Part shown: piece by piece, positions 32,946 through 37,896 of the stretch
Layout of the letters: each line of letters begins with the position of its first letter
How positions within the stretch are numbered: the first letter of the stretch is position 1
Assembly: GCA_963712745.1 (NCBI GenBank)
Contig: CAVQJC010000019.1
Span: forward strand, 1-51,445
Source of the DNA: an uncultured Chloroflexia bacterium
GTDB lineage: Bacteria; Chloroflexota; Limnocylindria; Limnocylindrales; CSP1-4
Reading direction: 5' to 3'
DNA length: 51,445 bases
Program-made: the position numbers and the translations under genes
The notes under the pieces: model-generated
Told to the model about the DNA's origin: nothing
Database searches by the model: none
What the model saw: only the letters and a program-made list of their open reading frames with translations

Positions 32946-32972
32946 ACGGCCGGGGCTCCGAGCCCCGGCCGT
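32946..32972 (-). terminator. Perfect 12-bp hairpin downstream of the small lipoprotein gene
   Basis: ACGGCCGGGGCT-CCG-AGCCCCGGCCGT, followed on the minus strand by TACGATTCTT. Confidence 0.65.
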
Positions 32973-33008: not shown

Positions 33009-33137
33009 TTACTCCGTGGCGGCCTCGCTCGCCGCGGGAGACCCGGCCGGAGCTTCGGTGGCGTCGTCGTTGTTGTCGCAGGCGACGACAGCGAAGGCGA
33101 AGACAAGGGCAGCCAGCAGAGCGGTGATCTTCTTCAT
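33009..33137 (-). CDS. Small 42-aa putative lipoprotein
   Basis: MKKITALLAALVFAFAVVA-C-DNNDDATEAPAGSPAASEAATE; AAGGAGG SD; lipobox-like VVAC; downstream hairpin. Confidence 0.8.
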   Translation of the reverse strand: MKKITALLAALVFAFAVVACDNNDDATEAPAGSPAASEAATE

Positions 33138-33306
33138 GGTTCCTGATCCCTCCTTGGGTGTTGTTCGATGACGGCGCAAGCGCCGGTTGATGCGGGGGCA
33201 GGCCCGAGGGATGCGGTGCACGGCACTGGCAGCATCCGTCGACGCCAACCCATGGTGGTGGCACCCACACGAAATGGACACGCTCACGGCAAGCGCACCG
33301 TGGAGT

Positions 33307-33334
33307 ATCATAGACCGCGGCGTAGCGAATGCAA
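33307..33334 (-). promoter_or_regulatory. Promoter TTGCAT-N16-TATGAT, probably for the small lipoprotein gene
   Basis: -35 at 33334-33329 and -10 at 33312-33307 on the minus strand; overlaps a plus-strand TATCAT at 33306-33311. Confidence 0.5.
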
Positions 33335-33607
33335 GACGCCCCGAGCGCCCCGGGCGTGTGCGGACAGTGACCCGATGATGGTCCTGGAACACCCGGTGCG
33401 GCGCGCTCTGGGTCGGTCGGCCGTCTCTCAAGGCGAGCAGACCACTTCCATTCCCGACGTTACCAGTCGTGATCAGACAGACCGTTTGCGCCCAGTGGGC
33501 CCGGTCGTCACTAGGAGATCGACACATCAGCAACGAGCGGACACGACACACGCGATGCGCGCTGGGCTCTGCCCTAGGCCGCGACCGTCGCTTCGAGTGT
33601 CCAGCCC

Positions 33608-33634
33608 TGCAGAGTTGCCCACGGCAACTCTGCA
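33608..33634 (+). other. Perfect 12-bp hairpin just before the SD of the NYN gene
   Basis: TGCAGAGTTGCC-CAC-GGCAACTCTGCA, then AGGAG at 33641. Confidence 0.6.
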
Positions 33635-33651
33635 CCACACAGGAGTCCTGA

Positions 33652-35508
33652 GTGAGCAAGAACGTCGCCGTCTTCGTGGACGTTGCGAACATCTTCTATG
33701 CGGCCAAGGCCGCCGGGATCGACATCGACTACGTGACCCTCTTGAAGTCGGCCACGGCCAACCGCGACTTCGTGCGCGCGTACGCCTACACCGGCCTCGA
33801 TCCGGAGAACGAGAACCAGCGCCAGTTCCACGCCTTCCTGGCGCGTTCCGGCTACAAGGTCGTGAGCAAGGACATCCGCAAGTACGGCGACGGCCGGGTC
33901 AAGGCCAACCTCGACATCGAGCTCGTCGTGGACATGATGCGCATGGCCGAGAAGCTCGACGTCGCCGTCGTCGTCTCGGGTGACGGCGACTTTGCCCCGG
34001 CCATCGCTGCGGTCCAGCAGATGGGCACGCGCGTGGAGGTCATCAGCTTCCGCGGCAACACCAGCAGCGACCTCATCGACGTGGCCGACGTGTTCATCGA
34101 CATCACCAACGTGGCCAAGGTCGAGAAGGGCGCCCGCAGCGGACGCCGCGTCGCTTCCGACGGCGACCTCTCCATGACCGAAGTGCCCGACAAGGAGTCG
34201 GGCGTCACGCCGCGCCGCCGCCGTCGTCGCGATGACGACGGCGCCGAGAGGACCCCGCGAACGGTGCGTGCTCCGCGCCGCCGTGGAGGCCGGCCGGCGG
34301 AGGCCGACCAGGTCGAGAAGGCCGAGAGCGTGGAGTCGCCGCCCGCGGCAGCGGGCCTGGTGGCCTTGCCCGGCGAGAAGCTGTCACGCGGTGCCGAGGT
34401 CGCCGAAGTGCCCGAAGAGGCCGTGGCTGCGGTGGCTGCCGAAGCCGCTGACGAACAGGTCGCCGAGGACGGCAGCGGCCGCCGCCGCCGCCGCCGCCGT
34501 GGCGGCCGTGGCCGTGGCCGTGGCGGCCGTGGCTCCGAGACCACCGACGGCCAGCCCGAAGAGCAGCCCGATGACGAGGATCTCGTCGTCCAGCAGCCCG
34601 ATGACGAGGATCTCGTCGTCGAGCACCCCGACGAGGTGCCGACGCTGCCCCAGCACTCGGGCTTCGGCTCCGTCTGGGACAGCCAGATCGGCGTGCCTGC
34701 CGACACCGCTCTGACTTCGTCTGCGACTCGCCCGGAGGAGGAAGAGGAGTTCGAGGATGAGCCGGAGGTGCCCGAGTACCTCCTGGCCGAGAAGAGGCAG
34801 GGTCGCCGCAGTGGCGGTGGCGCCGGCCGCGGCCGGGGACGCGGTGGCCGCAGTGGCGGATACCGCTCGGCCATCGACCGTGAACGCTACGGCACCGGCT
34901 CAAGCTTCTCGCGCAGCAGCGGCGGTGGCAAGGGCCGTTCGGCCAGCACGCCGCGCGCCTCGGTACACGCGATGGAGCCCATCGAGCAGACTCGCGGCGG
35001 CGATCCCTGGAGTGAGGTACCGCCGGAGGTGCAGGCGCTGCTGAAGGCCGAGCTCGCCCGTCGCGAAGGCGCAGCCGAGCCAAGGTCCAAGGCTCCGGCC
35101 GAGGAGGAGCAGCCCAAGAAGCGCACCACCCGCAAGCGCCCGACCAAGAAGGCCGCGCTGGCCGAGGCCGAGGCGCCCGTGGAGGAGGCTGCCGGGACTC
35201 CGGCCGAGGAGGAGCAGCCCAAGAAGCGCACCACCCGCAAGCGCCCGACCAAGAAGGCCGCGCTGGCCGAGGCCGAGGCGCCCGTGGAGGAGGCTGCCGG
35301 GACTCCGGCCGAGGAGGAGCAGCCCAAGAAGCGCACCACCCGCAAGCGCCCGACCAAGAAGGCCGCGCTGGCCGAGGCCGAGGCGCCCGTGGAGGAGGCT
35401 GCCGGGACTCCGGCCGAGGAGGAGCAGCCCAAGAAGCGCACCACCCGCAAGCGCCCGACCAAGAAGGCCGCGGTGGCCGAGGCCGAGGCGCCCGTGGAGG
35501 AGGCCTAG
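33652..35508 (+). CDS. NYN (LabA/DUF88, PIN-like) domain protein with a long disordered C-terminal region
   Basis: Motifs VFVDVANI, KANLDIELVVDM, VVSGDGDFAP and SSDLIDVADVF; about 450-aa low-complexity tail; AGGAG SD. Confidence 0.9.
   Translation: MSKNVAVFVDVANIFYAAKAAGIDIDYVTLLKSATANRDFVRAYAYTGLDPENENQRQFHAFLARSGYKVVSKDIRKYGDGRVKANLDIELVVDMMRMAEKLDVAVVVSGDGDFAPAIAAVQQMGTRVEVISFRGNTSSDLIDVADVFIDITNVAKVEKGARSGRRVASDGDLSMTEVPDKESGVTPRRRRRRDDDGAERTPRTVRAPRRRGGRPAEADQVEKAESVESPPAAAGLVALPGEKLSRGAEVAEVPEEAVAAVAAEAADEQVAEDGSGRRRRRRRGGRGRGRGGRGSETTDGQPEEQPDDEDLVVQQPDDEDLVVEHPDEVPTLPQHSGFGSVWDSQIGVPADTALTSSATRPEEEEEFEDEPEVPEYLLAEKRQGRRSGGGAGRGRGRGGRSGGYRSAIDRERYGTGSSFSRSSGGGKGRSASTPRASVHAMEPIEQTRGGDPWSEVPPEVQALLKAELARREGAAEPRSKAPAEEEQPKKRTTRKRPTKKAALAEAEAPVEEAAGTPAEEEQPKKRTTRKRPTKKAALAEAEAPVEEAAGTPAEEEQPKKRTTRKRPTKKAALAEAEAPVEEAAGTPAEEEQPKKRTTRKRPTKKAAVAEAEAPVEEA
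34561..34635 (+). repeat. Intragenic 30-bp tandem repeat, about 2.5 copies (xQPDDEDLVV)
   Basis: Units at 34561, 34591 and a partial unit at 34621. Confidence 0.85.
35093..35505 (+). repeat. Intragenic 105-bp (35-aa) tandem repeat, about 3.9 copies
   Basis: Units at 35093, 35198, 35303 and 35408 encode PAEEEQPKKRTTRKRPTKKAALAEAEAPVEEAAGT; near-identical at the DNA level. Confidence 0.92.
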
Positions 35509-35516
35509 CGGCCAGC

Positions 35517-36638
35517 ATGGATGGTGTCGACCAACCACCCGAGGCCGGCGGCACCTTCCTGACCCGCGGTCACGCGGCCGCGGTCAGATCCATCGCACGT
35601 TCGGTCCGCAGCGAACGACCGCCTCATGCCCTCCTGCTGGTCGGTCCGCGGGGAGTGGGCAAGACTACCCTTGCGCTCGACCTGGCCGCGGGCCTGCTCT
35701 GCCTGGCCGACGATGCCACCGCCCGGCCTTGCCGAAGCTGCCCGGCCTGTCGCAAGGTCGCAGCGGGCAATCATGCCGACCTGCATCTCATCGCACCCGA
35801 GGGTGCAGGGGAGCAGATCCGCATCGGGCAGGTGCAGCAGCTGGCCTCCGACCTGGCCCTGACGGCGATGGAGGGTCGCTTCCGGGTGGCCGTGGTGACC
35901 TCGGCCCATCGGCTCAACCTCGACGCCCAGAATGCCCTGCTCAAGACGCTTGAAGAACCTGGACCGGCGACCTGCCTCATGCTCTGTGCCGACGAAGCTG
36001 CCTCACTGCTGCCCACGGTCCTCTCGCGATCGGCTCGGTTGCGCCTGGCGCCGCTGCCGGTCAAGACGCTTGCCGCGCTGCTCGTCGAGGACGGCCATGC
36101 CACGCCAGCGATGGCGCGCTCCCTGGCCGTGGCGGCGGCCGGACGTCCCGGCCTCGCCATCCGCCTGGCCGATCAGCCCGCGGCGGTCATCGCCCGTGCC
36201 CGCATCGGCCGAACCCTGCTCGACCTCGTGACGGCCGACCGACGCACCCGCCTGGGCGCGGCCGCTGACCTCATCACCGATGCCGCGGCAGTCGACGCGG
36301 CCATGCGCGGCGAGGTGGCGCCGTCAGCCAGGCGGCTGCAGCCGTTGGAGCGTCGTCGTGCCATCGGGCTCATCGTCGAGGTCTGGCGCGAGCTCGGCCG
36401 AGACTTGGCCGTGGCCGCTCAGGGCAAGGGTCAGGGCCGCGGTATCCGCGACCTCGACCAGCTGGAGGAGCTGCTGGCGCTCAGCGGGCGCGTGGACGCC
36501 AGATCGCTCCGCCCTTTCCTCGACCGCCTCGACCGGCTGATGCTGGCAGTCGAGGCCTACGCCAGCCCCGAGTTGACGCTGGACGTACTGCTGCTGACCT
36601 GGCCCCGGGCCATGTCCCAGGCGCGGAGTGCGGCGTGA
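35517..36638 (+). CDS. holB: DNA polymerase III subunit delta'
   Basis: Motifs HALLLVGPRGVGKT, Zn module (C..CRSCPAC), NHADL, QNALLKTLEEP and LLPTVLSR. Confidence 0.92.
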   Translation: MDGVDQPPEAGGTFLTRGHAAAVRSIARSVRSERPPHALLLVGPRGVGKTTLALDLAAGLLCLADDATARPCRSCPACRKVAAGNHADLHLIAPEGAGEQIRIGQVQQLASDLALTAMEGRFRVAVVTSAHRLNLDAQNALLKTLEEPGPATCLMLCADEAASLLPTVLSRSARLRLAPLPVKTLAALLVEDGHATPAMARSLAVAAAGRPGLAIRLADQPAAVIARARIGRTLLDLVTADRRTRLGAAADLITDAAAVDAAMRGEVAPSARRLQPLERRRAIGLIVEVWRELGRDLAVAAQGKGQGRGIRDLDQLEELLALSGRVDARSLRPFLDRLDRLMLAVEAYASPELTLDVLLLTWPRAMSQARSAA

Positions 36639-37019: not shown

Positions 37020-37448
37020 ATGTCGCTCACGCCACAGGAGAAGCGCGCTCAGCTGGAGCTTGTGCCGCTCTTCTCGGATTGCAGCAGCCAGGTCCTCGAC
37101 CAGCTGGCGGAGGTCACCACCGAGTTCGAGTTCGCCGCCGACACGCCCATCGTGCAGCAGGGACAGGTCGGCAACGGGCTCTACATCATCGTCAGCGGCG
37201 GTGCCCGCATCGTGGCCGGCAGTGGCGAGCTGGCCCGCTTCGGCCCCGGTGATTTCTTCGGTGAGCTCTCGGTCATCGATCAGCAGCCGCGGACCGCCAC
37301 GGCCTTCGCATTGGGCGACACCGTCTGTCTGGCCCTGGCCTCGTGGGACCTGGTGGCCGTGCTCGAGCGCGAACCGGTCCTGGCCATGAACCTGCTCCGT
37401 GAGCTGGTCCGACGGCTACGCGAAGCAGACGTCCAGCTGCGCCACTAG
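37020..37448 (+). CDS. Stand-alone cyclic nucleotide-binding domain protein
   Basis: Motifs VPLFS, IVQQGQVG..LYIIVSG and GDFFGELS..QPRTAT. Confidence 0.92.
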   Translation: MSLTPQEKRAQLELVPLFSDCSSQVLDQLAEVTTEFEFAADTPIVQQGQVGNGLYIIVSGGARIVAGSGELARFGPGDFFGELSVIDQQPRTATAFALGDTVCLALASWDLVAVLEREPVLAMNLLRELVRRLREADVQLRH

Positions 37449-37479
37449 CAGACCGCAGACAGCAGAGGGAGGCACCTGC

Positions 37480-37896
37480 ATGAACCAGCAGGAGATCCTC
37501 GACGCGCTCGCCGGGTTGAGCCTGTTCTCCGACCTCGATCGGCCAAGACTCCAGGCGGTCGCCCATACGATGTCGGAGGAATCGTTCGCATCCGGCCAGC
37601 GCATCCTGCGCCAGGGCTTCTCCGGCAGCGGCTTCTTCGTGATCCTCGATGGCGAGGTCGCGGTCCGCGTCGATGGCGTGGACGTGGCCCGTCTGGGCAA
37701 GGGCGACTTCTTTGGAGAGATCTCGCTGCTGCTGGGCGAGCCGCCCATCGCCGACGTGGTGACCACCGCCCACGTGCAGGCCCTGCAGTTGGCGGGTCCG
37801 GACCTGCGCGAGTTCCTGCTCGCCTACCCGGTCGTGATGTACCGCATGCTGCAATCGGTCAGCCGGCGCCTCGACCGCGCCAACCGCCGCAGCTAG
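37480..37896 (+). CDS. Second stand-alone cyclic nucleotide-binding domain protein (degenerate phosphate-binding cassette)
   Basis: Motifs LSLFS, ILRQG, FFVILDGEV and GDFFGEISLLLGEPPIAD. GGAGG precedes ATG 37480. Confidence 0.9.
   Translation: MNQQEILDALAGLSLFSDLDRPRLQAVAHTMSEESFASGQRILRQGFSGSGFFVILDGEVAVRVDGVDVARLGKGDFFGEISLLLGEPPIADVVTTAHVQALQLAGPDLREFLLAYPVVMYRMLQSVSRRLDRANRRS

Follow-up and report, generated by a model that had tools for sequence, protein, structure and literature searches.

The gene considered here lies in a stretch of 51,445 nucleotides, hereafter the window, of contig CAVQJC010000019.1 (assembly GCA_963712745.1) from an uncultured Chloroflexota bacterium. At 33652..35508 on the plus strand it encodes a protein of 618 residues in which an NYN nuclease domain is followed by a long disordered tail, as judged from the open reading frame, Pfam, and AlphaFold2. 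What can be said most safely is that the gene encodes a core NYN nuclease, maintained by selection and with its catalytic residues preserved, and that the long disordered tail is also selected, strongly and in patches. On the basis of sequence conservation and a modeled structure, it is very probably an NYN nuclease whose tail has been kept by selection, and we tentatively regard it as an NYN endoribonuclease that uses the tail of ~460 residues as an RNA-processing hub, a function that is plausible and should be taken as a well-motivated hypothesis rather than a finding. The hosts form a lineage that is uncultured and abundant in soils and sediments, and the protein bears on whether bacteria lacking RNase E build hubs comparable to those of RNase E. 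An initial annotation of the window had proposed an NYN ribonuclease fused to an RNase E-like scaffold; the reading frame and every string it quoted are present, namely the motifs VDVAN, LDIEL, and SGDGDF, three Arg/RGG tracts, and five short hydrophobic islands.

Disorder and patchy conservation in the tail

A homologue search scored 8000 candidates, 2349 of which reached E ≤ 0.001, and the best 120 of these 2349 were examined. The Pfam NYN family, PF01936, was found in all 120 relatives listed, whose source names were Candidatus Limnocylindrales/Limnocylindria and Chloroflexota. The conservation alignment was built from 93 of the 120, the 27 excluded sequences being mostly flagged as partial, shorter than ~545 residues, or run together with the gene that follows (P0107). 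In these 93 relatives, nine islands that together occupy 93 of the 463 residues past position 155 have a mean identity of 0.91, against 0.32 for the linkers and 0.89 for the NYN domain. When the per-position values were shuffled 1000 times, the island total averaged 15.8 and did not exceed 53, so that 0/1000 shuffles reached 93. What the alignment and the AlphaFold2 model together delineate is a disordered region with short conserved microdomains set in divergent linkers, a feature by which degradosome scaffolds are recognized. Comparison of islands with linkers was a check proposed in the initial annotation, and all five of the islands named there proved to be conserved; the nine also take in an Arg7/RGG tract and a segment at residues 157–182.

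In the AlphaFold2 model, which was computed with the 93 aligned relatives, 400 of the 618 residues have a predicted local distance difference test (pLDDT) score below 50, and the structural elements of the tail are short helices at residues 342–345, 376–385, 404–412, and 458–474. Residues 186–618 include 38% charged residues with a net charge per residue of −0.009, and their charges are strongly segregated (z = 10.6 versus shuffles; 0/500 shuffles as high); the corresponding values for the NYN domain are z = 0.2 and 195/500. The tail is, in these terms, a blocky polyampholyte disordered region, a property expected of condensate scaffolds, and the low complexity and charge patterning initially ascribed to it are borne out.

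Read from the NYN domain toward the C terminus, with all elements on the plus strand, the tail starts with a post-NYN island at residues 157–182 (VEKGARSGRRVA / DLSMTEVPDKE; 34120..34197), whose identity in the 93 relatives is 0.93–0.94. This island, which was absent from the initial annotation, is the best-conserved part of the tail and yet is predicted to be disordered, with pLDDT below 50 at 163–169, 175–177, and 179–182. It is followed by the first poly-Arg tract, PRRRRRR (residues 187–193; 34210..34230), in which R188, R190, and R191 are each conserved to 90% or more, and by the island LPGEKLSR (residues 239–246; 34366..34389; identity 0.92). The Arg7 plus RGG tract at residues 276–291 (GRRRRRRRGGRGRGRG; 34477..34524) has an identity of 0.97; it is the tail element retained in all three families that possess the tail and is echoed in other Chloroflexota NYN proteins, in forms with an N-terminal disordered region. 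Repeat finding and the alignment then mark a variable linker, likewise new relative to the initial annotation, that consists of an acidic 30-bp repeat in 2.3 copies (QPDDEDLVV units; 34562..34631). Further on lie the islands FGSVWDSQIG (residues 338–347; 34663..34692; identity 0.93), which coincides with the short helix 342–345, and EPEVPEYLLAEKRQ (residues 370–383; 34759..34800; identity 0.85), which overlaps the predicted helix 376–385. A second RGG tract (residues 392–403; 34825..34860), recognized from the translation and the alignment, precedes the island AIDRERYG (residues 407–414; 34870..34893; identity 0.89) with the predicted helix 404–412. The conserved island PWSEVPP...LKAELAR (residues 452–470; 35005..35061) runs into the amphipathic helix 458–474, and block 461–470 has the highest pLDDT of the tail, 85.

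The C-terminal end of the protein consists of four tandem 35-residue units (35093..35504), a 105-bp repeat in 3.9 copies with 99% matches that is a further addition to the initial annotation; each unit combines the basic core PKKRTTRKRPTKK with an acidic/Ala spacer. For a survey of this repeat, 54 of the 120 relatives were kept (at least 540 residues, an M start, and SGDGDF present, with P0107 excluded), and most of the 25 C termini inspected carry the unit in several near-identical copies of a variant peculiar to the species. The basic repeats, 30–36 residues long, are near-identical inside each protein and different between species (P0002–P0046), which points to repeated expansion or concerted evolution. 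The C termini of a few relatives are frame-shifted within the repeat, where assembly errors are probable.

Searches for similar sequences away from this gene yielded little. The best ESM Atlas look-alikes of tail residues 186–480 scored 0.81–0.86, under the chance level of 0.9, so that the matches, which comprised Planctomycetota clusters and the Arg-rich RhlB extension PF12300, are a lead at the level of composition only. When eight short patterns taken from the islands were searched in all six frames of the window's own genome, only the NYN gene matched all of them, and the seven other matches were single chance matches in unrelated frames. A genome-wide scan for poly-Arg/RGG sequences returned 330 stop-to-stop frames, nearly all of them spurious high-GC frames, and proved uninformative; of three other frames with RG repeats, two read as off-frame sequence from end to end, and the RG tract of the third is located in such sequence 5' of a real-looking protein.

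The NYN domain and its active site

Residues 4–151 (33661..34104, plus strand) make up the NYN (PIN-like) nuclease domain, as indicated by Pfam, the structure 2qip, Foldseek, and conservation. The match to PF01936 has an E-value of 7.6e-36 and 124.2 bits against a cut-off of 24.2 and covers profile positions 1–144 of 145. No second Pfam family was found in the 618-residue protein at E ≤ 0.1, and NCBIfam gave two subthreshold matches only. VPA0982 (PDB 2qip) was the sole solved structure found by sequence (E 5e-19). In the AlphaFold2 model residues 1–155 are folded, with a pLDDT of 59–93 per 10-residue block, and a Foldseek search of the PDB with this model placed 2qip first (template modeling (TM) score 0.79, E 8e-13, 34% identity). 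The search also retrieved the NYN domains of mouse and human MARF1 (5yaa/6fdl; TM 0.72–0.76, identity 15–17%), and its other matches were generic Rossmann-like folds.

The available text of the MARF1 study presents MARF1-NYN as a proven Mg/Mn-dependent single-stranded RNA nuclease, with the catalytic residues D178, D215, D246, and D272 at the ends of β1, β2, and β4 and the start of α3, an Asn (N181) three residues past the first Asp, and a Ser (S270) two residues before the last (PMC6217404). The equivalent places in the present protein are D10 with N13, D50, D88, and S109-x-D111, where D50 was placed by topology and its DP motif, HMMER aligning the Asp of 2qip three residues later. Throughout the 93 relatives, the predicted catalytic residues D10, D50, D88, and D111, together with N13, S109, and D113, are either invariant or conserved to 90% or more. 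By sequence and by its modeled structure, the domain is a bona fide NYN fold with the four catalytic acidic residues of MARF1 in place, which agrees with the initial annotation, where its acidic motifs had been described as intact. No LOTUS/OST-HTH family of Pfam was found beside the NYN domain at E ≤ 0.1, the appended part being predicted as disordered. The RNase E/G catalytic domain PF10150 is likewise not found in the protein, which is not a member of RNase E/G, and any likeness to that enzyme is functional and confined to the tail.

Distribution, RNA-decay genes, and genomic surroundings

The occurrence of the tailed protein was surveyed in a phylum sample of 401 genomes and a class sample of 41 genomes; the phylum tallies include five genomes flagged as unpublished (G344, G272, G173, G145, and G227), all of which stand on the "not found" side. 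In the phylum sample the tailed NYN occurs in 44 genomes, which belong to three Limnocylindria families: f1, with 23/23 in addition to the window's genome, f2, with 4/4, and f3, with 16/16, so that the tail is present in every sampled close relative, as the initial annotation required of it. Outside f1–f3 the tailed form was not found in this sample, where the query matched NYN domains only. The class sample gave the same picture, with 27/27 genomes of f1–f3 and 0/14 of f4 and f83. All sampled f1–f3 genomes have one match each, apart from a few that hold extra partial pieces. The query matches f1 proteins to the C terminus and those of f2 and f3 to about residue 300; the Arg7/RGG tract recurs in the f2 and f3 tails, as do basic repeats and acidic helix-like motifs, but their islands are partly different, the f2 tail including AAKPAAKP-type repeats. 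When residues 226–480 alone were searched by phmmer against 1.84 billion cluster representatives, 156 matches were obtained, 47 of which are at least 440 residues long. Among these 47, 30 have an NYN domain, four have only the domain of the downstream holB gene (DNA polymerase III δ'), and 13 have nothing; the four are read-through into the next gene and the 13 are probably fragments, and in none of the 47 does the tail stand on another catalytic domain.

Other Chloroflexota families have other arrangements. In f9, f24, f28, f45, and f57, a low-complexity region of 250–330 residues with a poly-Arg tract precedes the NYN domain, and the NYN domains of these families with an N-terminal tail form a separate supported clade (99/98). 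Seven such loci (L016–L022) encode NYN proteins of 324–481 residues with the domain at the C terminus and a helix before it, the reverse of the layout in the window; the motif LPPLEYSE(I/L)Q stands just before the poly-Arg tract in two f24 loci, and a SPFGSPEPSFARGFGP-type motif recurs in four or five of the seven. The NYN domains of f4 and f83 are divergent, scoring 52.6–63.2 bits versus 124–134.3, and have a different architecture. Four of their loci (L069–L072) encode proteins of 534–583 residues with an N-terminal NYN domain (LIDWENVYY, VSGDRDL), a short RGG tract, a helical-looking middle of ~300 residues that has no Pfam match, and a C-terminal RRGSRGGRGRRGGRGRG. Family f78 has a bare NYN domain of 183 residues that is 55% identical. 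The association of poly-Arg/RGG sequences with NYN domains in three layouts within the phylum fits an RNA-binding accessory role. No published description of a tailed bacterial NYN protein was found among the papers listed, supplements aside, on NYN/LabA/DUF88 proteins, degradosomes, and ribonucleases of Limnocylindria, and the tailed architecture is an undescribed variant of NYN proteins.

The window's genome, assembled in 20 contigs with a completeness of 84.55%, encodes RNase J (599.7 bits), RNase Y (657 bits), PNPase, two DEAD-box helicases on contigs C4 and C20, and a FEN-type 5'–3' nuclease (PF02739, E 7.7e-30), and no match to RNase E/G (PF10150) was found in what is assembled of it. 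Over the phylum sample, RNase E/G exceeds the Pfam cut-off in one of the 401 genomes; the idea that loss of RNase E explains the tail was rejected on this count. On contig C10 of the same genome, the genes for RNase Y (70013–71518), RNase J (94965–96593), and PNPase (101037–103631) all lie within ~33 kb.

The PNPase itself is unusual. It has 865 residues (G000:C10:101037-103631, minus strand), and a DEDDh exonuclease domain (PF00929, E 5.5e-29, residues 254–406) is inserted between its first RNase PH module and its helical domain; loci L028, L029, and L033 also bear the insert. Of the genomes in the class sample, 27/27 of f1–f3 have the insert and 0/14 of f4/f83 do, and a query spanning the insert and both junctions was matched end to end, within the phylum sample, by no genomes other than the 44 with the tailed NYN. 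A search for PNPase with a DnaQ-type insertion in Chloroflexi found nothing relevant among the papers listed. A PNPase tree with five outgroup genomes, made by a quick method, places f1, f2, and f3 in one clade (SH-aLRT 99).

The NYN gene starts with GTG, according to the translation of the window, whose G+C content is ~69%, and a Shine–Dalgarno-like AGGAG lies 6 nt 5' of it (33641..33645, plus strand; read from the sequence); (A)GGAG also precedes GTG in 10 relatives. Nine nucleotides past the stop codon begins holB (35517..36638, plus strand; PF13177, E 4.9e-42), which is found 3' of the tailed gene in 12 of 15 f1–f3 loci, the remaining three loci running into contig edges, and 3' of the NYN gene in 0/8 loci from other families. 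holB is a conserved neighbor of the tailed gene and probably co-transcribed with it. An acylphosphatase gene comes next after holB, and farther on, at 37020–37448 and 37399–37896 (plus strand), are two adjoining small genes with one cyclic-nucleotide-binding domain (PF00027) each, whose listed frames overlap by ~50 nt. On the 5' side are an amino-acid ABC transporter on the opposite strand and a lipoprotein-like open reading frame of 42 residues (33009–33137, minus strand), which has a signal-peptide-like start, a Cys at position 20, and a GGAGG site before it and for which no Pfam match was found; a GC-rich hairpin lies after it, near 32950–32972. In ten relatives (loci L005–L015), a gene of ~150 residues that looks acetyltransferase-like by eye lies directly 5' of the NYN gene on the same strand. 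In the window the corresponding ~510 nt (33138–33651) appear noncoding, and tblastn found no copy of the gene in the assembled genome (best E 0.73). A conserved 5' leader RNA was considered and discarded, the apparent upstream conservation being that of the small gene of the ten relatives, and an Rfam scan of the whole window found nothing at gathering scores.

Contigs from RNA libraries of two studies match the gene at 99–100%, one of 258 nt over 33807–34064 in the NYN part and one of 174 nt over 34788–34961 in the tail, and a third RNA library contains many relatives at 90–99%. The shared fraction of sampled words was at most 0.42 for DNA runs and at most 0.14 for RNA libraries, and contigs from either kind of run speak for presence only, not for transcription or abundance, the uncovered parts of the tail being no evidence.

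Function of the tailed protein

If the protein acts as an RNA-processing hub, a metal-dependent NYN (PIN-like) endoribonuclease would capture its substrates through the disordered C-terminal region, which would probably also handle assembly into larger bodies. Multivalent RNA binding could come from the Arg7/RGG tracts together with the four basic tandem repeats, and the acidic blocks might temper it unless they rather drive self-association; the conserved islands, three of which are nascent helices, might serve as short linear motifs that dock partners or become folded when bound. The ends produced by cleavage would be 5'-phosphate and 3'-OH, which would suit the RNase J and PNPase encoded in the genome. 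In function the tail would then correspond to the C-terminal half of RNase E, the nuclease to which it is attached being an unrelated one, and the way in which short islands are combined with Arg-rich tracts, acidic blocks, and multivalent basic repeats is, by analogy, an RNase E-type scaffold pattern. The parts of this proposal differ in strength. The tail probably binds RNA; that it recruits protein partners is no more than fairly possible, and its forming condensates is rather doubtful.

Several considerations weigh against the hub. RNase E/G is missing from almost the entire phylum, so its absence is not particular to the tailed lineage; the notion of an alternative to RNase E is thereby weakened, although an added hub would still have its place. 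Bacteria without RNase E usually rely for decay on RNase Y, RNase J, and PNPase, and with all three present there is no decay gap to fill and an alternative degradosome is not required. The initial annotation, which had suggested examining these enzymes, is therefore upheld as to the missing RNase E/G and the scaffold-like pattern, but not as to the alternative degradosome, a role that neither the presence of RNases Y and J nor the nearly phylum-wide absence of RNase E/G calls for. Moreover, holB is a replication gene, not an RNA-decay gene, and an identity as high as 0.89 across the entire NYN domain would be compatible, too, with a substrate that is fixed and universal, the ribosome being one example. 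As to expression, the contigs from RNA libraries are a weak hint and no proof of transcription. The shared distribution of the tailed NYN and the PNPase insert is explicable by one ancestor, since f1, f2, and f3 form a single clade, and is a lead only. Finally, the available text of PMC5499597 describes functional studies of the LabA-like NYN.COG1432 proteins as lacking in 2017.

The matching distributions of the NYN tail and the PNPase insert nevertheless suggest that the whole decay apparatus of the clade was remodeled. In its boldest form, which we regard as speculative and improbable, the tailed NYN and the DEDDh-PNPase would have arisen together on one Limnocylindria stem as parts of a single degradosome with a PIN-like endonuclease, in which the tail, through its Arg7/RGG tract and Trp-containing islands, would dock the two-chemistry PNPase and RNA, possibly in a condensate. 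Such an assembly would operate without RNase E and would differ from the RNase Y-based assemblies of Firmicutes.

Among the alternatives, the one that survives best, although unlikely, is a nuclease of ribosomes or of rRNA/tRNA maturation, modeled on nucleolar PIN nucleases and B. subtilis Rae1/YacP: the NYN domain would cut a fixed site in a precursor or ribosome, the basic/RGG tail would be an RNA chaperone or ribosome tether, and the islands would contact ribosomal components. The disparity between NYN domain (0.89) and linkers (0.32) in the same relatives suits an invariant substrate, as does the finding that within f3 the NYN domain is 67–68% identical against 62–63% for PNPase, and throughout the clade the gene is a core gene present in nearly single copy. 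It is not adjoined, however, by any gene for rRNA, tRNA, or a ribosomal protein, the neighbors being holB, the acylphosphatase gene, and the amino-acid transporter in a window that Rfam found empty, and the related families f4 and f83 manage without a tailed NYN.

A quite improbable alternative ties the protein to replication, as a nuclease associated with DNA or the nucleoid. The position of holB, with its probable co-transcription, the AAKPAAKP-type repeats of f2, and the C-terminal basic repeats, which we take to resemble histone-H1-like DNA-binding repeats, are compatible with it, as is the PIN-like fold, which is common to flap nucleases. RGG tracts, in contrast, typically bind RNA; holB is not beside the NYN gene in any of the eight loci of other Chloroflexota classes; and the genome encodes its own FEN-type 5'–3' exonuclease (PF02739), by which primer removal is covered. 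The available text of PMC6217404 can be cited on both sides, because it likens NYN to T4 RNase H while showing that MARF1-NYN, the closest characterized fold relative, cuts single-stranded RNA.

Still less credible is a noncatalytic regulator that binds without cutting, as has been proposed for cyanobacterial LabA, with a tail that tunes localization. It accords with the available text of PMC5499597, in which no enzymatic activity is shown for LabA-like NYN.COG1432 proteins, but the near-invariance of the predicted catalytic residues in the 93 relatives would not be expected were catalysis dispensable. An antiphage defense nuclease of the NYN type, suggested by a match to PADLOC PDLC01154 ("LabA-like protein, NYN family nuclease"; E 2.9e-22), is already disfavored and scarcely tenable, because the match covers the NYN domain only (profile positions 149–298 of 310, the first half being unmatched) and is thus not full-length, and because a core gene with fixed housekeeping syntenic neighbors throughout a 44-genome clade is unlike a defense island.

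We therefore keep the RNA-processing hub as the working interpretation. An NYN/PIN-like fold, unrelated to RNase E, has gained a tail with an RNase E-like evolutionary signature, and if this tail recruits RNA and partners, the degradosome idea would have been invented here independently. The protein would also give a first mechanistic foothold for the large LabA-like family and, as one protein with nine mapped motifs, a compact system for studying the evolution of disordered scaffolds.

Among the closest known proteins are those of the LabA-like NYN group, for instance VPA0982 of Vibrio parahaemolyticus (PDB 2QIP), which belongs to the same domain family by sequence and fold and has the same acidic motifs, but it is a bare domain of ~165 residues, to which the present protein adds a disordered part of ~460 residues that contains the nine conserved islands along with RGG tracts and basic tandem repeats. 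Mammalian MARF1, in which NYN is combined with RRM and LOTUS domains, shares the NYN fold and the four catalytic Asp positions and offers, by analogy, a precedent for a nuclease domain that would depend on an appended RNA-binding part; its appendage is folded LOTUS/OST-HTH, whereas the one described here is disordered and no LOTUS domain was detected in it. All the other Chloroflexota NYN proteins examined likewise combine NYN with a poly-Arg/RGG tract, but the low-complexity region is N-terminal in f9, f24, f28, f45, and f57, the NYN domain is divergent in f4 and f83, and f78 has the bare domain.

The comparison that bears most directly on the hub is with the C-terminal scaffold of RNase E in E. 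coli, Caulobacter, and cyanobacteria. Scaffold tails with short docking motifs are the organizing principle of the RNase E degradosome, and RNase E forms BR-bodies. The catalytic domains are unrelated, as there is no PF10150 in the present protein, and the protein of the window is without an identified membrane-targeting helix. The resemblance lies in the long disordered region past the nuclease domain, in Arg-rich segments of the RNA-binding type that alternate with acidic blocks, and in short conserved microdomains in divergent linkers, an arrangement that the available text of PMC4435900 also reports for gamma-proteobacterial RNase E. It extends to the runs of six or seven Arg residues, which resemble the nonapeptide RRRRRRSSA, the Arg6 sequence by which cyanobacterial RNase E, according to the available text of PMC3964918, docks PNPase.

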